Both the position numbers and the translations under genes were made by a program. The notes beneath the pieces were generated by a model. That model did no database searches. It saw only the letters and a list, made by a program, of their open reading frames with translations, and had not been told where the DNA came from. 64,000 nt of DNA from Gammaproteobacteria bacterium (lineage in GTDB: Bacteria > Pseudomonadota > Gammaproteobacteria > Natronospirales > DASSBR01): NCBI GenBank assembly GCA_035690945.1, contig DASSJY010000018.1, positions 48,590 to 112,589 on the forward strand. The letters are read 5' to 3'. Positions 39,298 through 47,719 of this stretch are shown here, one piece after another (the first letter of the stretch is position 1; each line of letters starts with the position of its first letter).

Positions 39298-40506
39298 ATG
39301 GCGACAGCGATGAGTGCGGCCAGCGGTGCGGTGGCGACGATAGCGCCGGTCATCTATGAAGTCACACTGACGGCCGACGCTGCAATCGCGGCCGACTTCG
39401 ACGCATGGCTCGCGCGGCACGTCGAAGACATGGTGCATCTGCCCGGCTTTCTGGATGCCGATATCGAGCGCGCCGATCCGCCTGACGCCACGCACGTGAT
39501 GCGCGTGGCGCGCTACCGCGTCGAGAGCCGCGCTGCGCTCGAGCATTATTTCGCCGAATACGCCGCCGGAATGCGCGCCGCCGGCATCGACCGCTTCGGC
39601 GACCGCTTCAGCGCTGCGCGCCGGGTTCTCGAACCGGCAGGCGACGATCCGTCGCCCGGCACTGCCATCCAGTTCTGCGGCAACTGCGAGACCCCGCTTC
39701 GCGGACGCTATTGCCCCGTCTGCGGCCAGGACTCGTATCACCGCGTTACTTCAATCCGCGAACTGCTGACCGACTTCTTCGGCGAGTTTCTCAACCTGGA
39801 TTCGCGCCTCGCCCGCAGCCTTCCGCCGCTGATCGGCCGACCGGGTGTGCTGACAAAGGAATATCTGGCAGGGCGGCGCGCACGCTACATCCCGCCGCTC
39901 AAGCTGTACCTGTTCATCAGCGTGGCATTTTTCTTTCTGCTGTCGCTCGCATCGTTGCGGCCGGAGTGGCTCAACATACACGTAGCGCAGGGCAATGACG
40001 CGCCGGTACATCTGTCGGTCGATGAACAGAACGGGGAGTTGGCCAAGCAACCCGGATGGGTCCAGGAGCTGGTGCGAAAGGGCATGGACGCAAAAAACAA
40101 TCCGCGCGCCTTCGTCTCGACGATGATCGGCAAGCTGCCGACGATGATGTTCCTGCTGCTGCCGCTGTTCGCGTTCTTTCTGAAGTTGCTCTACATCCGC
40201 CGCAAGCGCTACTACGTCGAACATCTGATCTTCAGCCTGCACTACCACGCAGTCGTTTTTATGGCTGCGTTCATATTCCTGGTCGCCTACGCGTTCGCCG
40301 ATCGGTTCGGCATCGCAGCAGTGACCGGCAATGCAGGGTTGGTGTTGTGGATTTATCTGACGCTGTACCTGATCCTCGCGATGCGCAAAGTCTATGCGCA
40401 AGGCTGGATAAAGACCTTCTTCAAATGGTGCGTGCTCGCCTTCTTCTACGGCTTGTCGCTGTCCCTCGTGCTGGCGGGCACCGTAGTGTGGGCGGCGATG
40501 ACCTAG
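39298..40506 (+). CDS. DUF3667-type zinc-ribbon membrane protein fused to an N-terminal DUF4286-like domain
   Basis: 'CGNCETPLRGRYCPVCGQ' zinc ribbon followed by 'LLTDFFGEFLNLDSRLARSLPPLIGRPGVLTKEYLAGRRARYIPPLKLY' (DUF3667 pattern) and 4-5 TM spans. The first ~110 aa look like a separate alpha/beta domain. Confidence 0.6.
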   Translation: MATAMSAASGAVATIAPVIYEVTLTADAAIAADFDAWLARHVEDMVHLPGFLDADIERADPPDATHVMRVARYRVESRAALEHYFAEYAAGMRAAGIDRFGDRFSAARRVLEPAGDDPSPGTAIQFCGNCETPLRGRYCPVCGQDSYHRVTSIRELLTDFFGEFLNLDSRLARSLPPLIGRPGVLTKEYLAGRRARYIPPLKLYLFISVAFFFLLSLASLRPEWLNIHVAQGNDAPVHLSVDEQNGELAKQPGWVQELVRKGMDAKNNPRAFVSTMIGKLPTMMFLLLPLFAFFLKLLYIRRKRYYVEHLIFSLHYHAVVFMAAFIFLVAYAFADRFGIAAVTGNAGLVLWIYLTLYLILAMRKVYAQGWIKTFFKWCVLAFFYGLSLSLVLAGTVVWAAMT

Positions 40507-40525: not shown

Positions 40526-41782
40526 CTACTGCGGCTGCATCGGCTCAACCGCCGACTCCTCTTCCTCGGCACGCGGATCGAGCTGCGCGATAACCGTCGA
40601 TGTGCGCGGCATCGCGACGAACGGCGCCTGCTCTTCCGGCGCGACCGGCTTGCGCCGCGGCACGACGAGCGCCGCCACGCCGAGCGCCGCCGAAATCACG
40701 GCGACGAACAGAAAGAGGCCCGCCGGCCCGGTAATAGCCGACACCGCCGCCGCGCCCATCGGCCCCAGCGCCGCGCCGACGCCGTAGGACAGAATCAGCG
40801 CCGCGCTCGCCGGCACCAGTTCGCTCGCGTCGATGTGGTCGTTGGCGTGCGCGACCGACACCGGATAGGTCGTGAACGTCAGGCCGCCGAAGATGGCGGC
40901 GAACAACAGCAGCAGGATCATGGAGCTGCCGCCGACAGCCAGAATCGCCCAGCTCGCCGCCGCGACAGCCAGGCTCAACACGCCGATGACCCGCTGCCGG
41001 TCGAACCGATCCGATACCATGCCGACCGGCCACTGCAGCGCGAGACCGCTCAGGATGGTCACGCCCATGAAGATCGCAACCTGCACCACCGCGAGCCCCT
41101 CGCGCACCGCGAAGGCCGGCCCGAGCGCATAAAACGCGCCGTTGGCAAGGCCCGCGCCGATGCAACCCCAGATGCCGAATGGCGCTCGTTTGAACAGCTT
41201 GCCCACGCGGATGCGTACGTTCTCGACCGGCTGCGGATGCACGGCACGCGTCAGCGTTACCGGAATCAGGCTGAACGCGAACAGGATCGCCACCACGAGA
41301 AACAGCGTCGCCCCGGAATGTTCGGCGGCACTGAGCAGGAACTGCCCGGTGCCGAGGCCGAGAAAGGTGGTTGCCATGTAGACCGAAAACACCCGGCCGC
41401 GAATGCTGCTCTGCGCGCGTTCGTTGAGCCAGCTTTCGATCACCATGTAAAGGCCCATCATGGCGATGCCGGTACCCAGCCTGAGCAGCCCCCAGGCAAG
41501 CGCCGACAAATACAGCGAATGCAGCAGCACGATGATCGTATTCGCCGCGGCGAACGCGGCGAAGGCGCGAATGTGGCCCACCCGGCGCACGATGCCCGGC
41601 GCGATGAACGAGCCGAACACCAGGCCTGCATAGTAGCCGGACATCACCAAGCCGGTGATGCCGCCGCCGTAGCCTGCGAGCGTCAGACGCAGGCTGATCA
41701 GCGAGCCCAGCAGCCCGCTGCCCAGCATCAGCGCGAGTACGGCGAGAAACAGGGCGCTTAATGACCAGAGGGTGCTTCGCAT
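40526..41782 (-). CDS. MFS transporter
   Basis: Start set at ATG 41782 (MRSTLWSLSALFLAVL). 12 predicted TM spans. 'GIVRRVGHIRAF' resembles MFS motif A. Confidence 0.8.
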   Translation of the reverse strand: MRSTLWSLSALFLAVLALMLGSGLLGSLISLRLTLAGYGGGITGLVMSGYYAGLVFGSFIAPGIVRRVGHIRAFAAFAAANTIIVLLHSLYLSALAWGLLRLGTGIAMMGLYMVIESWLNERAQSSIRGRVFSVYMATTFLGLGTGQFLLSAAEHSGATLFLVVAILFAFSLIPVTLTRAVHPQPVENVRIRVGKLFKRAPFGIWGCIGAGLANGAFYALGPAFAVREGLAVVQVAIFMGVTILSGLALQWPVGMVSDRFDRQRVIGVLSLAVAAASWAILAVGGSSMILLLLFAAIFGGLTFTTYPVSVAHANDHIDASELVPASAALILSYGVGAALGPMGAAAVSAITGPAGLFLFVAVISAALGVAALVVPRRKPVAPEEQAPFVAMPRTSTVIAQLDPRAEEEESAVEPMQPQ

Positions 41783-41847
41783 GGCGCAGCGATGATGCGG
41801 AAAAACGGACGCGAAGTATAACATTGGGCACACCGCTCATCGGGCGT

Positions 41848-41878
41848 TTGACGCCGCTCATCTTGATGTGCTAAAAAT
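41848..41878 (+). promoter_or_regulatory. Putative sigma70-type promoter of the RiPP-like cassette
   Basis: TTGACG (41848-41853), then an 18-nt spacer, then TAAAAA/AAAAAT (41872-41878), about 45 nt upstream of ATG 41924. Confidence 0.35.
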
Positions 41879-41923
41879 CGCTTCAATGTGTCGAATTAGA
41901 ACTAGAAGGGCGGCTAAACAGGG

Positions 41924-42184
41924 ATGAACGGCTTGCTCGGATATTACGAAGGCGTCTTGGCGCTACTCGACGATCGCATCCGCGGCGGCGATGCCGCTTC
42001 CGCTGAAACTACCCCACCCGCCACTGAAACCGCATCGGACGAAACCGATCTCGCCAAACTGATCGCGGCTTCCGTTGAACAGGTCGCCGACAGTGCCACG
42101 CCCGAGGAGCTTCGGGCGATGCGCCTGGACATCTGCACGCAGGCACTGGGCGAAGTGGCACGCATCATGAGAGAGCCGCGATGA
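41924..42184 (+). CDS. Hypothetical acidic 86-aa protein, translationally coupled to the radical SAM gene
   Basis: G/C-biased third positions. Its stop overlaps the rSAM start (ATGA at 42181-42184). 'MNGLLGYYEGVLALLDDRIRGG' is followed by a T/P/A/E/D-rich stretch. Confidence 0.55.
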   Translation: MNGLLGYYEGVLALLDDRIRGGDAASAETTPPATETASDETDLAKLIAASVEQVADSATPEELRAMRLDICTQALGEVARIMREPR

Positions 42185-44103
42185 AGCTGAAGCCGCTGCG
42201 CCCGGACGCGTCGTTTGGCCTTGTCGCCATGCCCTGGTTCTGGTCGACCATGCCATCCATTCAGATCGGCATCGTCCGCCAGTTGCTCGCGGACTTCGGC
42301 ACCACGCGGGCACATGAGTTTTACGTGGACCTGGCCGATCAGGTCGGCTTCGATCTCTATGAAGTGCTTGCCATGGATTCGGGCTTCGTTGCCGAACGGT
42401 TGTTTTCGCTGCTGTATTACGCCGAGGGGCTGGAGCACGATCAGGCGAAGACACCGTTCCTGGGCGTGCAATCGAAGGAAGTCGAAGATGCGCTGTTTAC
42501 CTTCCTGCCGCCGATCATCGACGACCTGATGGAAAAATGGATCGAGGAACTGAGCACGCAAAACTACGATGCCGTGTTCTTCAGCCTGACGATCAACCAG
42601 AACGCCGCATCGATGCTGATGGCGAAGCGGCTCAAGGAAAGACGGCCCGACTTGCCAATCATCTTCGGAGGTTCAAGTTGCGCAGGCCCGATGGGTCGAG
42701 CGCTCGCGGCAGTATGCCCGGAAGCCGACGTCGTCGTGCATGGCGAGGCTGAAGTGACACTGCCGCACCTGATGAAAGCGTTGCAGCAACCTGAGCCCGA
42801 TCTGAGCCTGATTCCGGCAATCAGTTGGCGCGACGGCGACGAAATTCGCACCAATCCGCGCCCACCGCTGCACAATCTGCAAGCGCCACGCAATTCGCTC
42901 TATTTTGGCGACTACTTCAAGCGAGTCGAAGCCGCGAAGAATCTGGATTTAAACGATGTCTGGATTCCATTTGAAAGTAGTCGCGGCTGCTGGTACGGCA
43001 CATACAATCAGTGCACGTTCTGCGGCCTGAATGAAATCATCACCTACCGGGAACGAAATAACGATGCACTGGTGGATGAACTCGCGTCCTACCAGGAACA
43101 ATACGACAGCACGCAGTTCTTCTGCGTCGACCTGATCATGCCGATGCACTTCTTCAAGGACGTGCTGCCGCGGCTCCAACAGGAAGGGAAGGACTGGTCG
43201 ATTTTCTACGAGATCAAGGCCAACCTGAAGCGCGAGCAAATCGCCCAGCTGGCGAAAAGCGGTATTCGGAGAATCCAGCCCGGCATCGAAAGTCTGCATG
43301 ACGACGTCCTCAAGCTGATGAAAAAGGGTGTGTCCGCCCTGCAGAATATCCAAACGCTGAAATGGGGCAAGCAATACGGTATCGACGTCGGCTGGAACAT
43401 CATCACCGGGTTCCCCGGCGAAACGGCGGCCGTATACGAGGACATGGCTGCGCTGATTCCGAAACTGCACCACCTCCAGCCTCCAGTTGACTGCGGCGAC
43501 TTTCAGGTACACCGGTTCAGTCCGTGCTTTACGAAGCCCGCCGAACATGGCATTCGTGTATTGGGCTCGGACCGACGCTATCGATTTGTCTATCCGGTCG
43601 ACGACGTCTTGCTGGACGACCTAGTGTACCGGTTCGAGTACGAGCTGTTGCCGGAGTTTCCTTCGACCAACGGCATGAAAGCGCCGCTTCATACCGCTTT
43701 CCACAGCTGGCAAGAGGCCGTCCGCAGGGGTGCGGCGTTCGAAATGATCGAACACGCCGACGGTTCTTTTGAATTGATTGATTCACGTGCCTCGGAAACG
43801 CCAATACGAACTCATCTTCGGCCGGAAGAAGCAAGCTTATTGGTGTTTCTCGACAATCAGAGAAGCGCCGAAAATATCCCGGATCAATTTGAACGATATG
43901 ACACGAAGTCATTCGCCGCTTTGGGTGGGAGACAAGGCATTCAAGAGCTGATTACGCAATGGGAAAACAAAAATTTCCTGGTGCGTATCGGATCCAGAGT
44001 GGCAGCATTGCCCACCTGGAAGGCGCATGAGCAACAGACTCATGCACACCATGTAAAAAACGGAGGTACCAACGATGAACGCAGTTATGCACAAGCGAGC
44101 TGA
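42181..44103 (+). CDS. B12-binding-domain radical SAM enzyme, RiPP-maturase type (TIGR03975-like), with a C-terminal PqqD/RRE-like region
   Basis: 'FGLVAMPWFWSTMPSIQIGIVRQLL' N-terminus. 'DAVFFSLT...LPIIFGGSSC' Rossmann segment. 'ESSRGCWYGTYNQCTFCGLNE' (Cys270-x7-Cys278-x2-Cys281, nt 42988-43023). C-terminal 'LRPEEASLLVFLDNQRSAENIPDQF...ELITQWENKNFLVRIG'. Confidence 0.75.
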   Translation: MKLKPLRPDASFGLVAMPWFWSTMPSIQIGIVRQLLADFGTTRAHEFYVDLADQVGFDLYEVLAMDSGFVAERLFSLLYYAEGLEHDQAKTPFLGVQSKEVEDALFTFLPPIIDDLMEKWIEELSTQNYDAVFFSLTINQNAASMLMAKRLKERRPDLPIIFGGSSCAGPMGRALAAVCPEADVVVHGEAEVTLPHLMKALQQPEPDLSLIPAISWRDGDEIRTNPRPPLHNLQAPRNSLYFGDYFKRVEAAKNLDLNDVWIPFESSRGCWYGTYNQCTFCGLNEIITYRERNNDALVDELASYQEQYDSTQFFCVDLIMPMHFFKDVLPRLQQEGKDWSIFYEIKANLKREQIAQLAKSGIRRIQPGIESLHDDVLKLMKKGVSALQNIQTLKWGKQYGIDVGWNIITGFPGETAAVYEDMAALIPKLHHLQPPVDCGDFQVHRFSPCFTKPAEHGIRVLGSDRRYRFVYPVDDVLLDDLVYRFEYELLPEFPSTNGMKAPLHTAFHSWQEAVRRGAAFEMIEHADGSFELIDSRASETPIRTHLRPEEASLLVFLDNQRSAENIPDQFERYDTKSFAALGGRQGIQELITQWENKNFLVRIGSRVAALPTWKAHEQQTHAHHVKNGGTNDERSYAQAS

Positions 44104-44272
44104 CGAATGGGTCGGCGAAGTAAGGCGGGATCCGGAACGCTATCAGCAGTTGCGGTCCGGCCTTAATGAAGCCAAAACTGGCCAAGAAAGGCTGAAGTTC
44201 CTGTCGACCTTTGCCGCACAGCAAAATGCGGCGCAGAATCATGTCGGCAAGCCGCCGACAATGATGTGGTAA
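44075..44272 (+). CDS. 65-aa candidate RiPP precursor peptide
   Basis: GGAGG (44062-44066) lies 8 nt before the ATG. It overlaps the rSAM 3' end by 29 nt. Charged helical N-terminal ~50 aa plus the Cys-free tail 'NAAQNHVGKPPTMMW'. It is followed by a 12-bp-stem hairpin. Confidence 0.5.
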   Translation: MNAVMHKRADEWVGEVRRDPERYQQLRSGLNEAKTGQERLKFLSTFAAQQNAAQNHVGKPPTMMW

Positions 44273-44286
44273 GAGTATCTTGAAAA

Positions 44287-44323
44287 TTCCGTCCGCGCTG
44301 AACTCGTTGAAGCGCGGACGGAA
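44287..44323. terminator. Strong hairpin between the convergent peptide ORF and GGDEF gene
   Basis: TTCCGTCCGCGC (44287-44298) pairs perfectly with GCGCGGACGGAA (44312-44323) across a 13-nt loop. A short T-run follows only on the minus strand (TTTTCAAG). Confidence 0.6.
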
Positions 44324-44342
44324 CCTTCCCGCTCTTCGACTT

Positions 44343-46157
44343 TCAGGCGCAAACCCGATCGCGCCCCAAATCCTTCGCTTCGTATAGTTTCTTGTCCGCC
44401 CGCCTTTGCAGTTGCTCCTGGTCGTAACAAGCGCCACCGGCGACGCCAATACTCATCGTAACCCGCAACCCCGGATGCACATACTCCCAGTCATAGTTGC
44501 TCATCATGTGACGGATGCGTTCGCATACGTTTAGAGCGCTGTCGACGTCGGTTTCCGGAAAGCAGATTACAAACTCTTCGCCTCCATAACGGGAAATGAT
44601 GTCGATCGACCGACAGGCGCGCCGTAGAATCTGAGCAGTAATGCGCAAGACTTCGTCGCCGGTGGCGTGCGAGCAACTATCGTTGATTCGTTTGAAGTTG
44701 TCGATATCGGCCATCCCAATGGCGATATCGCGCCCGAAGCGTTCGGCGCGCTGCAATTCGATCGTCAGGCGCTCGTCCATGTAGCGGCGATTGTATAGCC
44801 CCGTCAAGCTGTCTTCCTTGCTAAGGCGATCGAGTGCATCCGTCTTGCGCTGCAACTCCGTCAGCAGTCGTTCCTTCAGCTTGTTGGCTTCGCGGAGCGA
44901 GTCCGTTCGCTCGGCGACCCGATGTTCGAGTTCGAGTTTGTGCTCGGTCAACTCTTCAAAGAGCCGGGCATTGGCAAGTGCCGCGCCCACCTGCCCGGCG
45001 AACGTCACCATCAGATCAAGGTCGCTGCGCGTGAACTTGCCGGGAATAAAGTCCTGTACGCTCATGGCCCCCAGTACTCGACCGCGCCAAGTCACTGGCA
45101 CGCCTAACCAGCACGATGGGGTTTCGCCCACAATTACCGAACGACGCTTCAGCTCGCTGTTATCCCGAGCCCAATTCGAAATCAAGGCCGGCTGATTATG
45201 CTCAACGAGCCAGCCGAGTAACCCCTCTCTGGCAGGCACTTGTCTACGAGGCATCCGGCCGGCGCAACTATGATGTAGCACAAAATCGAGTTGCTGCTTC
45301 GCTTCGTCATAGAGTACCAAGTGAAATGCAGAGAAACTGAGCAACTGACGGCATTGCGTATAAATTAATTCCACCAACTCATCAAGATGAATCGAAGCGT
45401 TAGTCGCTTGCGCCAAGCGGTTCAGCGCCGTCATCTGATGAATGTGCAGTTCCAGGTCACTTCGATTCTGCGCGAATCGCCGCATGAGCAGGGAGAGCAG
45501 CAACAAAACCAGTACCAACAGCAAAAAGCTGCCGAGAGGTAGCCGATCATAGGCAATAGCTGTGAACACGGCCAATGGGACCATCGCCAGATCAACCAGA
45601 TTAGCGAATACCCAAATTGCTTGGCCGAAGGAAAGCCCGCGCACCCGTGACAAGATTCCCATCAATACGTGGTTGACGACTTGCATCGCCAGTGCCATAC
45701 AAATTACCGCTGCAACCGTTTGGCCATCGAGCTCGGTCAGCGGTGTTGTTCCGCCCAGCGCGTGCCATACGACTCCACCGGACAGGAGAACCAAGCTTTG
45801 CATGCCAACATTGTGTAGCGCGCGCCCGGTCGCCAATTTCCAGGAAAAGCCCTTCCTGTAACAGAGCAGAAACGGCCATATCAAATAGGCGAGCGCATTA
45901 ATAAGTATCGCCGTCAGGGGATCGAAAATCAGAAGAAAGGCGATCTGGCTGACGCGGTCGAGCCCGAGATAGCCAAAGAAAGGGGCGGGGAAAGCCATGG
46001 TCAGCGTTAACAGCGTGAACAGGGCAAAGCCGACAATGACAGGGAGTGAGGGTAGCGTTACACCGCCGAGGGCCGCCGTATATAAGAGAGCCGCGCAGCC
46101 GCAAGCCGCCATGAAGACGGCATAAATCATCTCTTTTCGTGTTATTCGTTGCGTCAT
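44343..46157 (-). CDS. Membrane-bound GAF-GGDEF diguanylate cyclase
   Basis: Start set at ATG 46157. About 7 N-terminal TM spans and a GAF-like middle. 'RSIDIISRYGGEEFVICF' (RxxD I-site 5 aa before GGEEF). Confidence 0.85.
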   Translation of the reverse strand: MTQRITRKEMIYAVFMAACGCAALLYTAALGGVTLPSLPVIVGFALFTLLTLTMAFPAPFFGYLGLDRVSQIAFLLIFDPLTAILINALAYLIWPFLLCYRKGFSWKLATGRALHNVGMQSLVLLSGGVVWHALGGTTPLTELDGQTVAAVICMALAMQVVNHVLMGILSRVRGLSFGQAIWVFANLVDLAMVPLAVFTAIAYDRLPLGSFLLLVLVLLLLSLLMRRFAQNRSDLELHIHQMTALNRLAQATNASIHLDELVELIYTQCRQLLSFSAFHLVLYDEAKQQLDFVLHHSCAGRMPRRQVPAREGLLGWLVEHNQPALISNWARDNSELKRRSVIVGETPSCWLGVPVTWRGRVLGAMSVQDFIPGKFTRSDLDLMVTFAGQVGAALANARLFEELTEHKLELEHRVAERTDSLREANKLKERLLTELQRKTDALDRLSKEDSLTGLYNRRYMDERLTIELQRAERFGRDIAIGMADIDNFKRINDSCSHATGDEVLRITAQILRRACRSIDIISRYGGEEFVICFPETDVDSALNVCERIRHMMSNYDWEYVHPGLRVTMSIGVAGGACYDQEQLQRRADKKLYEAKDLGRDRVCA

Positions 46158-46249
46158 GTGCGGCCCCCCAAGGGCCAACCCCGCGGAAAAACTACTCCAC
46201 CCCGCGTCCTTTGGCAAGCAGAGCGGCCTTCGTAGCACTACACCTGGCG

Positions 46250-47719
46250 CTATTTACCCGACGCCCGGCCCGGCCCGAGCAGCCGTTCGGCGATCTCGAA
46301 CAGCCCCTGCACCACCAGGGCCAGCAGCGCCGCGGGCACCGCGCCTTCCAGGATCAGCGGCACCGACGCGAGGCGGATGCCGGTGAGGATCGGCTGGCCG
46401 TAGCCGCCCGCCCCGATCAGCGCCGCGAGCGTGGCGGTGCCGATGTTGATCACCGCGGCGGTCTTGATGCCGGCGAGAATCGGCCGGAGCGCCAGCGGTA
46501 GTTCCACAAGACGCAGCCGAGCCAGTGGCGGCAGGCCCAGTGCCTCTGCCGACTCCGCCAGCGCCGGGTCTATATCGATCAGGCCGGCGTGAGTGTTGCG
46601 CACGATCGGCAGCAGGCTGTACAGGAACAGCGCCAGCATCGCCGGCGGACCGCCGATGCCGAGCAGCGGAATCATGAACACCAGCAGCGCGAGCGCCGGG
46701 ATGGTCTGCGCGATGCCGACGACGGCCAGGATCGTCTGCCCCGCCAGCCGCCAGCGCGCCGCGGCGATCCCGAGCGGAATTGCGATCAGGATCGCCGCGG
46801 CCAGCGATAGGCCAACCAGGTACAGGTGCTCACCGGTGCGCTGCGCCAGCCTGTCCCAAAAATCGGCCTCGGCCTCGCTGGGCTGGCCGATGAATTGCGC
46901 CGCAACAGCTGTGTCCGCGCGACCGTGGAGCTTCACCGCCGCATTCATGCGGCGCATTTCGGCCGTGCTGATCCGGTTGGCGAAGGCCTCGATACGTGCC
47001 ACCACTTTTGGCGCGCGCTGCGCCAGATCGGCACGGTACAGGAACACCGCGCGGTAGTCCGGGAAGTACTGGCGGTCGTCGCGCAGCAGTCGCAGGTGGT
47101 AATAAAGGACGTTGGCGTCGGTCGAGTAGACGTCGGTGACGTCGATCGCGCCGGCTGCCAGCGCCCGGTAGGCCAGCGCGTGCTCGAGCCCCCGCACGTC
47201 CGTTTGCGGCAGGTTGTAGGCGCCCTTGAGGCCGGGCCAGCCGTCGCCCCGGTCCATGAACTCGTTGCTGAAGCCGAGACGCAGGTGCGGGTAACGCTTG
47301 AGATCGCTGACGGTATGAATGCCTAGCCGCCGCGCTACCTTGCTGGCCATGCCGAGCGCATAGGTATTGTTGAAGCCGAGCGGCGGACCCATGCGAATGT
47401 GATGTTTCGCCAGCGCGCGTTCGAGTGCCGCGCGCCGATCCGGCACGTGCTCGCCGGCAAAAATCTCGCGCGCCAGCGTGCCGGTGTAGGCCGCGTAGAT
47501 ATCGATGTCACCGCGCACCAGCGCGTCCCAGACCACGCGCGTACCGCCCAGTTCGCGCCGGTGCGTCACGGTTGCGCCCGCCTCGCGCGCGAGGTCGGCG
47601 GCGATGTCGCCGAGAATGATCGATTCGGTGAACGCCTTGGAGCCGATCACCACGTGCGGCGGCGCCGCATGGGCGGCAAATGCAGCCAGCCCCAGCAGCA
47701 GCCCCGCGAACAGCTTCAC
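46250..47719 (-). CDS. Osmoprotectant (glycine betaine/choline-type) ABC transporter, fused substrate-binding (N) and permease (C) protein
   Basis: Signal peptide plus 'VVIGSKAFTESIILGDI...IDIYAAYTGT' (OpuBC/OsmF-like binding fold), then a permease with 'ESAEALGLPPLARLRLVELPLALRPILAG' (EAA loop). Confidence 0.8.
   Translation of the reverse strand: MKLFAGLLLGLAAFAAHAAPPHVVIGSKAFTESIILGDIAADLAREAGATVTHRRELGGTRVVWDALVRGDIDIYAAYTGTLAREIFAGEHVPDRRAALERALAKHHIRMGPPLGFNNTYALGMASKVARRLGIHTVSDLKRYPHLRLGFSNEFMDRGDGWPGLKGAYNLPQTDVRGLEHALAYRALAAGAIDVTDVYSTDANVLYYHLRLLRDDRQYFPDYRAVFLYRADLAQRAPKVVARIEAFANRISTAEMRRMNAAVKLHGRADTAVAAQFIGQPSEAEADFWDRLAQRTGEHLYLVGLSLAAAILIAIPLGIAAARWRLAGQTILAVVGIAQTIPALALLVFMIPLLGIGGPPAMLALFLYSLLPIVRNTHAGLIDIDPALAESAEALGLPPLARLRLVELPLALRPILAGIKTAAVINIGTATLAALIGAGGYGQPILTGIRLASVPLILEGAVPAALLALVVQGLFEIAERLLGPGRASGK

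Follow-up and report, generated by a model that had tools for sequence, protein, structure and literature searches.

What is encoded by a small open reading frame (ORF) that begins inside the 3′ end of a gene for a B12-binding radical S-adenosylmethionine enzyme (hereafter rSAM), and could its product be what that enzyme modifies? The question is raised by a locus in a 64-kb stretch of contig DASSJY010000018.1 from a Gammaproteobacteria bacterium, the whole of which we refer to as the window. Three genes follow one another there on the forward strand: ORF1 (86 aa; 41924-42184), which we interpret as an accessory rSAM subunit, the rSAM gene (640 aa; 42181-44103) and ORF3 (65 aa; 44075-44272), a putative precursor peptide. 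Translation of ORF3 gives exactly the peptide, at the same coordinates, that an earlier note on this DNA had singled out as the likely substrate of the enzyme. We find that ORF3 is a genuine conserved gene under purifying selection. We also consider that it is probably the ribosomally made substrate, that is, the precursor peptide, of a minimal three-gene cassette for a peptide that ribosomes synthesize and that is then modified post-translationally (RiPP); its adjacency to the rSAM gene, the homology of its leader to those of other peptides and the fusion of ORF1 to the enzyme elsewhere all support the substrate role that the note had proposed.

The ATG of ORF3 lies within the maturase gene, as previously noted, 29 nt from its 3′ end, and is preceded by a strong Shine-Dalgarno sequence (GGAGG, 44062-44066, forward strand) that sits 8 nt 5′ of the start and likewise within the rSAM coding region. 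The same 29-nt overlap is found in the related loci L001, L003, L015 and L016, and all five distinct ORF3 copies retain this overlap, the ribosome-binding site as cGGAGGta, the position of the stop codon and the hairpin that follows it. A protein database held an identical peptide and one that is 73% identical, from another metagenome-assembled genome (MAG) of the Gammaproteobacteria whose contig (L001) shares at least 12 kb of synteny with the window; further copies were found in a third MAG (L003, with an rSAM 70% identical to that of the window) and on short soil-metagenome contigs (L015-L018). The subtype defined in this way, which we call short-core, comprises only five sequences, the window peptide and four close homologues, all of them from MAGs or metagenome contigs of related soil Gammaproteobacteria and differing by up to ~40% in protein sequence. 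Scans of genomes and of metagenomes based on the rSAM returned two loci each, the metagenome scan yielding no new copy of the window subtype. Absence of the small ORF from related loci had been raised as a possible objection; a homologous peptide gene is present at the equivalent position in all five close loci.

The size of ORF3 alone is not significant, because 105 ORFs of at least 40 aa occur in the surrounding 12 kb. The G/C bias of its third codon positions, to which the earlier note had also pointed, is a modest effect (GC of 0.61/0.41/0.62 at the first, second and third positions), but the pattern resembles that of the rSAM gene (0.60/0.38/0.68) and thus fits the ORF3 frame. It is the comparative conservation that identifies ORF3 as a real gene. 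The ratio of nonsynonymous to synonymous divergence (dN/dS) between the window and L001 is 0.12, or 0.085 when the overlap is excluded; among the five copies, variable sites at the three codon positions number 23/22/42 of 64; and of the six frames only that of ORF3 is open in all five. The possibility that ORF3 is a chance open frame formed by the end of the rSAM gene and untranslated sequence, which the plentiful short ORFs of this GC-rich window and an antisense frame open across ORF3 in the window and L001 might suggest, is effectively refuted by this purifying selection, third-position excess and uniquely open frame, by the interruption of the antisense frame in L003, L015 and L016 and by significant homology to an independent peptide family, and its probability is next to nil.

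ORF1, rSAM and ORF3 form a compact operon in which ORF3 is last, since the ORF1 stop codon overlaps the rSAM start codon (ATGA), the rSAM gene overlaps ORF3 by 29 nt and a hairpin follows the ORF3 stop. This 13-bp GC-rich hairpin (44287-44323, no strand assigned; 17 nt past the stop; ΔG −31.8 kcal/mol, z −4.9) retains its stem through compensatory changes in L001, L003, L015 and L016, where its loop is variable. An A-run stands 5′ of it in every locus, and on the forward strand it is followed by four to five T residues in L001, L003 and L016 and by three in L015; in the window the forward-strand T-run is degenerate and a T-run is present on the reverse-strand side only. The A-run before and the T residues after the hairpin therefore mark it as a bidirectional terminator shared with a convergent GGDEF gene. 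A scan of the operon for consensus promoters and terminators called nothing, the hairpin included, and an Rfam scan of the operon found no riboswitch or other RNA, its one hit being a miRNA family that the terminator hairpin matched spuriously.

The enzyme itself belongs to a family named for peptide modification. It matches TIGR03975, ‘RiPP maturation radical SAM C-methyltransferase’, at 501.2 bits (cut-off 281.85) over positions 3-605 of 606, and PF04055 at 61 bits; the N-terminal cobalamin-binding model PF02310 reaches 32.0 bits, where its cut-off is 32.1, in a region that is covered by the full-length TIGR03975 alignment. In its translation the Fe-S cluster motif reads Cx7Cx2C (C270/C278/C281, CWYGTYNQCTFC; 42988-43023, forward strand), which is invariant in three close homologues, and the gene is under purifying selection (dN/dS 0.12, window versus L001). 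This motif has been described for PoyB/C and the bottromycin methyltransferases (PMC5682303, PMC11285071) and for MpcB (PMC10849626), and the characterized enzymes that carry it methylate the Cβ of peptidyl Val, Ile, Thr, Met, Gln, Pro and Phe (PMC5682303). Because the rSAM both matches TIGR03975 and has the motif of Cβ-methylating enzymes, C-methylation is the best-supported chemistry, in agreement with the preference that the earlier note had expressed for it over thioether formation. The hallmarks of lanthi-, sacti- and ranthipeptides are missing from the locus: ORF3 contains no Cys, and the enzyme is of the B12 type and gave no SPASM match in NCBIfam and Pfam scans. Searched by sequence against the PDB, it matched distant B12-dependent rSAMs only (TokK, 1.8e-9, and CysS), with no structure from its own family.

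Homology beyond the subtype places ORF3 in a family of peptides encoded next to such enzymes. When a profile built from 72 long-core peptides, none of them of the window type, is compared with ORF3, it matches residues 7-57 at 39.3 bits, an E-value of 5.9e-5 even when calculated for 1.8 billion sequences, and both groups share the leader consensus …ELRxDPExYxxLR…AKTDxER…LxDF…. The fuller consensus of this unnamed family is …ELRxDPExYxxLR…AKTDxER…LxDFAT…, followed by a core of the form TTVTVTTV…P[ST]AY. The family is rare, as a profile search of 1.84 billion representative proteins recovered just 69 clusters (at 50% identity), and every member whose locus was read is encoded beside a homologous rSAM. 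Compared with Pfam and NCBIfam at E <= 10, 63 members gave no significant match to any model, so by these comparisons the leader type is unclassified, as the earlier note had thought it might be. A loose resemblance to Nif11 leaders that had been seen in the peptide amounts at most to a very remote likeness and does not extend to membership: PF07862 was hit by 3 of the 63 members (best E 0.054), and ORF3 itself matched neither it nor TIGR03798 at E <= 1. Neither TIGR03798 nor the NHLP leader model TIGR03793 is among the 25 families listed of the 36 NCBIfam families matched by the 63 members, and ORF3 does not match TIGR03793. DUF6800, faintly matched by 4 of the 63 members (best E 0.007), was likewise rejected. 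Literature searches on the core motifs, TIGR03975, lyase/kinase genes with B12-rSAMs and tert-leucine RiPPs found no description of the leader family in the library searched.

The setting of the long-core peptides was read at six distinct loci obtained from six rSAM homologues (L005, L007 and L009 carry the same rSAMs as L004, L006 and L008), and their peptides are 82-98 residues each. In the metagenomic loci L004, L006 and L008, where the rSAM is 47-48% identical to that of the window, the peptide gene comes directly after the rSAM gene, overlapping its end in L004, which has two tandem copies, and in L008. It also directly follows the rSAM gene (38%) in L014, from Streptomyces sp. RerS4; in L012, a Sphingomonas MAG (46%), it lies upstream on the opposite strand, and in L013, another MAG (48%), two genes downstream, past two transporter-like genes. 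The closest rSAM relatives in the long-core family are 45-51% identical to the window enzyme, and the subtype enzymes form a tight clade that is sister to a 46-member clade including enzymes found with long-core peptides. The full arrangement, with ORF1 upstream and the peptide gene after or overlapping the rSAM gene, is present in the window, L001, L003, L016, L004, L006 and L009; no ORF1 gene was called in L008, and in L015 the overlap is seen on a truncated contig.

With two small proteins in the operon, it could be asked whether ORF1 is the substrate and ORF3 the accessory protein. ORF1 is small, matches no family in Pfam or NCBIfam, is translationally coupled to the rSAM gene and has a variable, acidic middle region, all of which a precursor might show. 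It is kept upstream of the rSAM gene in L001, L003, L004, L006, L009 and L016, with a dN/dS of 0.20. A hidden Markov model built from five ORF1 sequences, however, matches residues 1-83 of the rSAM homologue P0018 (E 2e-10) and residues 2-81 of P0022 (E 4e-5), so that among the rSAM homologues of 744-775 residues at least the nearest two (744-750 aa) have an extra N-terminal ~85 residues homologous to ORF1 that are there part of the enzyme; BLAST gave weaker matches to several other long homologues. Since these longer homologues carry it as their N-terminal part, ORF1 is best regarded as an enzyme subunit or detachable domain, and ORF3 is therefore left as the substrate candidate. The conserved parts of ORF1 are, moreover, two terminal helices with no core-like end, and its homologues lack the repetitive or modifiable C-terminal segment that ORF3 homologues have. 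A substrate role for ORF1 is accordingly most improbable. As a separate observation, the proportion of differing synonymous sites (pS) in close pairs is about half as high in ORF1 as in the rSAM gene (0.22 versus 0.49 for the window and L001, 0.11 versus 0.23 for L003 and L016), while in distant pairs the synonymous divergence of both genes is saturated; the low values in ORF1 suggest that the operon mRNA is additionally constrained at its 5′ end or that recombination has occurred locally.

Comparison of the five ORF3 copies also defines which part of the peptide may be modified. A leader of ~50 residues and a tail of ~15 had been proposed, and although the division into leader and tail stands, its borders differ: a leader of residues 1-46 (…ADEWVGEVRRDPERYQQLRSGLNEAKTGQERLKFLSTF; 44075-44212), conserved within the subtype and predicted to be helical, is followed by a hypervariable linker of residues 47-59 (AAQQNAAQNHVGK; 44213-44251), the most variable part, with in-frame indels among the copies, and the conserved core is confined to the six C-terminal residues PPTMMW (residues 60-65; 44252-44269, all on the forward strand), which we propose as the site of modification. 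The tail of the subtype reads P-P-T-[M/V]-[M/C]-W: all copies have both P residues, the T and the W, and variation is limited to positions −3 (M or V) and −2 (M or C). The window peptide is free of Cys, as had been claimed, but the subtype is not strictly so, because the short-core copy P0140 (L015 656-856) ends in PPTMCW rather than PPTMMW. Also as claimed, neither a Gly-Gly nor a Gly-Ala cleavage motif occurs in the window peptide, and the same holds for its four close homologues. An AlphaFold2 model of ORF3 based on a 22-sequence alignment has helices at residues 3-18, 20-32 and 36-57, with a predicted local distance difference test score (pLDDT) of 84-89 over residues 11-50 and below 50 for residues 55-65, so the tail is predicted to be disordered; a fold search with the model found no meaningful match (best E 4). 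The arrangement is that of a generic RiPP precursor, in which a small conserved ORF lies beside a peptide-modifying enzyme and the recognition part is separate from the putative modified part. A sequence similar to the tail, …IGKLPTMMF… as against …VGKPPTMMW, occurs in a membrane-protein gene (DUF4286/DUF3667; 39298-40506), where tblastn with ORF3 matches 39997-40149 at 31% identity over 64 columns (E 0.003 within the window); this likeness is probably due to chance.

The tail differs from the cores of the wider family. Nearly all family members have a core of alternating Thr, Val and Ile (…TTVTVTTVIIIVPSAY; for example …AAITTVTVTTVIIIVPSAY or …WTITTITTVLIPTTAR), often ending in P-x-[ST]-A-Y, with Tyr as the last residue in 39 of the 80 short family sequences tallied, whereas the window subtype ends in PPTxxW and the T/V/I-rich core is absent from ORF3 and its four close homologues. 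A second difference lies in the neighboring genes. In all six distinct long-core loci a lyase-kinase gene is found near the rSAM and peptide genes; its product has the lyase half and the kinase half of class III/IV lanthionine synthetases (LanKC/LanL) but no cyclase domain and matches PF25816 RamC_N, and the L006 copy, the one compared with NCBIfam, matches NF038151 over residues 9-372. None of the four short-core loci with downstream context has this gene, the GGDEF gene following instead, and tblastn did not detect it in the 64 kb of the window (best E 0.93), which also contain no nucleotidyltransferase-like gene and no second precursor. The simplest reading is that the short-core subtype arose through joint loss of the T-rich segment and the presumably dehydrating enzyme, while the methylase, ORF1, the leader and a short tail were kept.

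The same losses could mean that ORF3 is a remnant, a leader that is no longer modified and that either has been retained as a small helical protein partnering or regulating the enzyme or is en route to disappearance. In favor of this, both the core of almost all other family members and the accompanying lyase-kinase are missing, a few other members look degenerate or frameshifted (P0185, P0190, P0200, P0203 and P0206) and the leader is predicted to form a folded three-helix unit. Against it, the stop position and the PPT..W tail are invariant in five copies that have otherwise diverged widely, the 13 residues before the tail vary freely with indels, and the rSAM and ORF1 are under purifying selection as well. 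We disfavor this explanation, since decay would not selectively keep the last six residues, and hold it to be unlikely.

The strongest rival accepts ORF3 as the substrate and differs only in the chemistry: the B12-rSAM would carry out a reaction other than methylation on the tail, such as a radical C-C or C-S cross-link between the Trp and position −2, or would methylate the Trp indole at an sp2 carbon. The composition of the tail is suggestive here, since Trp is its invariant last residue and position −2 always carries sulfur (Met in four copies, Cys in P0140), and a short conserved core suggests one defined product. There are also precedents, in that cobalamin-dependent rSAMs are reported to catalyze ring formation, ring contraction and thioether formation (PMC13331322), and TsrM methylates Trp at C2 (PMC11285071). 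On the other side, the characterized Cx7Cx2C enzymes found and the clusters with TIGR03975-named enzymes, namely those of PoyB/C, bottromycin, MpcB and pheganomycin, are tied to Cβ-methylation at sp3 carbons (PMC5682303, PMC10849626), TsrM is not among the solved structures that match the rSAM at E <= 0.001, and the sulfur pattern is drawn from five sequences only. We therefore consider such chemistry rather unlikely.

How the leader would be recognized is suggested by the C-terminal domain of the enzyme (residues ~520-609; 43738-44007, forward strand), a winged-helix domain in the AlphaFold2 model and a candidate for leader binding in the manner of a RiPP recognition element (RRE). The model of residues 490-640 (mean pLDDT 86) comprises a linker helix, a β1-β2-β3-α1-α2-α3 unit and a β-hairpin, and this strand-then-helix order is that of RREs. 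Foldseek matched the domain to winged-helix proteins only, none of them significantly, with the lasso-peptide RRE TbiB1 in complex with its leader (5v1u_B) in fifth rank (probability 0.80, E 0.43, TM 0.61 on the target). On this modeling, an RRE-like role in leader binding is plausible but unproven. Codons 481-640 (43621-44100), which include the domain, are the fastest-evolving part of the gene (proportion of differing nonsynonymous sites, pN, 0.17-0.20 versus 0.03-0.11 elsewhere). Co-evolution with the peptide would agree with this pattern, which does not, however, count as evidence of it. In the last 80 codons pS is low (0.30), partly because of the overlap with the ORF3 start and its ribosome-binding site.

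We therefore return to the reading of ORF3 as the substrate of a C-methylating enzyme, which could operate as follows. ORF3 would be translated concurrently with the enzyme, from a ribosome-binding site of its own inside the 3′ end of the rSAM gene, and its helical leader of ~46 residues would dock on the two-part enzyme formed by ORF1 and the B12-rSAM, probably through the C-terminal winged-helix domain. A 5′-deoxyadenosyl radical would then abstract a hydrogen atom and methylcobalamin would supply the methyl group, by the class-B radical SAM route. The targets would be one or more unactivated carbons in PPTMMW, most likely the Cβ of Pro60/Pro61, Thr62 or Met63/Met64, and removal of the leader and export would fall to proteins encoded elsewhere. 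The modification of ORF3 itself, its nature as methylation, the target residues and the binding of the leader are all parts of this scheme that we infer. For the residues there is precedent, as Pro and Thr are methylated in clavusporin (PMC10849626), and Pro in bottromycin and Met and Thr in polytheonamide (PMC5682303).

Several points weigh against this proposal. RREs usually bind extended leaders, whereas the ORF3 leader is predicted to be helical, and the RRE assignment depends on a fold match that is not significant (E 0.43). A core that is conserved instead of variable is atypical of antimicrobial RiPPs, and the tail lacks the T/V/I-rich hallmark of the family, as a leader-only relic might. 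The cassette contains neither a protease nor a dedicated exporter. The adjacent major facilitator superfamily (MFS) gene was considered for the latter role and set aside, being a generic YcaD-like transporter whose adjacency is not separable from genome synteny. Finally, B12-rSAM enzymes also perform reactions other than methylation (PMC13331322).

Among characterized pathways, that of the clavusporins from Streptomyces clavuligerus (PMC10849626) offers the closest parallels to several of these features. There, methylation by MpcBC depends on the leader and falls on the β-carbons of Pro (twice), Val, Ile and Thr, and MpcB, a Cx7Cx2C B12-rSAM, needs a second protein, MpcC, while the precursor MpcA is short (PMC10849626). 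By analogy, the pairing of ORF1 with the rSAM parallels the two-protein requirement of MpcBC. The methylation of Pro and Thr in clavusporin recalls the Pro-Pro-Thr of the window tail, the clavusporin core (…VGITITVP…) resembles the Thr/Val/Ile cores of the ORF3 relatives, and the cluster, like the window operon, adjoins an MFS transporter gene (PMC10849626). The differences are equally clear: MpcC is a DUF5825 protein and ORF1 an unrelated 86-aa one; the clavusporin precursor is a 39-mer with a different leader, encoded upstream of the enzyme, in contrast to the downstream, rSAM-overlapping gene of the window; and the clavusporin cluster has an S9 peptidase and is confined to Actinobacteria (PMC10849626). 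Neither DUF5825 nor an S9 peptidase is encoded in the window operon or its flanks, and the six-residue C-terminal tail ending in Trp sets the window apart from the Mpc core as described.

With the proteusins (polytheonamides; precursor PoyA with its NHLP leader, enzymes PoyB/PoyC), the window shares a Cx7Cx2C enzyme and a long structured leader, and the polytheonamide enzymes Cβ-methylate Val, Ile, Thr, Met and Gln, of which Met is present in the window tail (PMC5682303, PMC11285071). Unlike the proteusins, the window shows neither an NHLP nor a Nif11 leader match and lacks an epimerase, an N-methyltransferase and a LanM-type dehydratase, and its core is 6 residues long as against ~48 in polytheonamides; proteusin-like rSAM homologues on plasmids are 28-30% identical to the window enzyme. 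Plasmid homologues also include the rSAM of a pheganomycin-type cluster, which is annotated with the TIGR03975 product name, is ~34% identical over 79% of the window enzyme and, like it, is encoded beside a very short precursor. This match covers residues 4-510 of the window enzyme and leaves the C-terminal winged-helix region unmatched, and in the pheganomycin type the precursor lies upstream, is annotated as a distinct family and is accompanied by peptide ligase and Dpg genes. The precursor falls outside the Nif11, NHLP, pheganomycin and Mpc precursor families; the rSAM would work like those of Cβ-methylating B12-rSAM RiPP pathways.

A conserved six-residue core that ends in Trp is unusual for a RiPP. 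In their logic, the PqqA/pyrroloquinoline quinone (PQQ) and MftA/mycofactocin systems are similar: each combines a small precursor, whose conserved C-terminal motif ends in or contains an aromatic residue, with a single rSAM and a small accessory protein, in a compact operon that has no immunity gene. The likeness is not one of ancestry, as no sequence relationship was found and the PQQ and mycofactocin enzymes are SPASM-type rSAMs that are not B12-dependent. As a tentative idea, to which we give only a small share of our belief, the locus could be a new minimal RiPP system in which a two-part B12-rSAM enzyme yields one defined small molecule, not a variable antibiotic or surfactant. This would be the modified hexapeptide PPT(M/V)(M/C)W or some part of it, serving as a signal or a redox- or cofactor-like compound, with chemistry that might combine multiple methylations with a Trp cross-link. 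By analogy, such a system may be PQQ- or mycofactocin-like in logic while coming from the lineage of PoyC/MpcB-like methylases.

The surroundings of the operon are shared with its relatives. Upstream lies the divergent MFS transporter gene (40526-41782, reverse strand), and downstream of ORF3 a convergent gene encodes a GAF-GGDEF diguanylate cyclase (44343-46238, reverse strand). Because all copies come from related soil Gammaproteobacteria, the adjacency of these two genes is indistinguishable from shared synteny. Across the cassette and the GGDEF gene (~41750-46250) the GC content is 0.51-0.61, compared with 0.64-0.71 in the flanks, and the cassette and the GAF-GGDEF gene may have been acquired together; the presence of this gene in the same lower-GC segment would fit a signaling role for the product.

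The long-core relatives point to a wider and apparently undescribed type of cluster, made up of an ORF1-like protein (free or fused), a TIGR03975 rSAM, one or two peptides of the TTVTVTTV…SAY type and a cyclase-less lyase-kinase. It was read in L004 (3741-8029), L006 (3738-7685), L008 (4001-7548), L012 (2979-6926), L013 (5001-11176) and L014 (5001-9005), that is, in Proteobacteria MAGs as well as in Streptomyces sp. RerS4, and some of these loci add a 2-oxoglutarate-Fe(II) oxygenase, a nucleotidyltransferase-like gene or an ABC transporter. Its core is strongly conserved, not hypervariable. The tandem precursors of L004 (5892-6140 and 6301-6588) have near-identical leaders and WTITTITT cores and end in …ILIPTTAR and …VLVGDTRKPRKEETA, respectively.

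The ORF3 locus thus defines a leader family for which databases hold no model, together with a new accessory domain, ORF1, that occurs free or fused to the enzyme. B12-rSAM peptide methylases act on unactivated carbons, and few have been characterized (PoyB/C, the bottromycin enzymes, MpcBC and the pheganomycin enzyme); with three genes and a conserved target of six residues, the window cassette offers a tractable system for this branch of enzymes. The wider family pairs a PoyC-like methylase with a lanthipeptide-type lyase-kinase that lacks a cyclase, on cores of the TTVTVTTV type, a combination for which we found no publication, and its products in Proteobacteria and Actinobacteria may be hydrophobic or surface-active peptides like the clavusporins. 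The antiSMASH rule based on TIGR03975 was dismissed for its false positives (PMC9426513); the ORF3 precursor family would permit proper annotation of at least this branch of TIGR03975.

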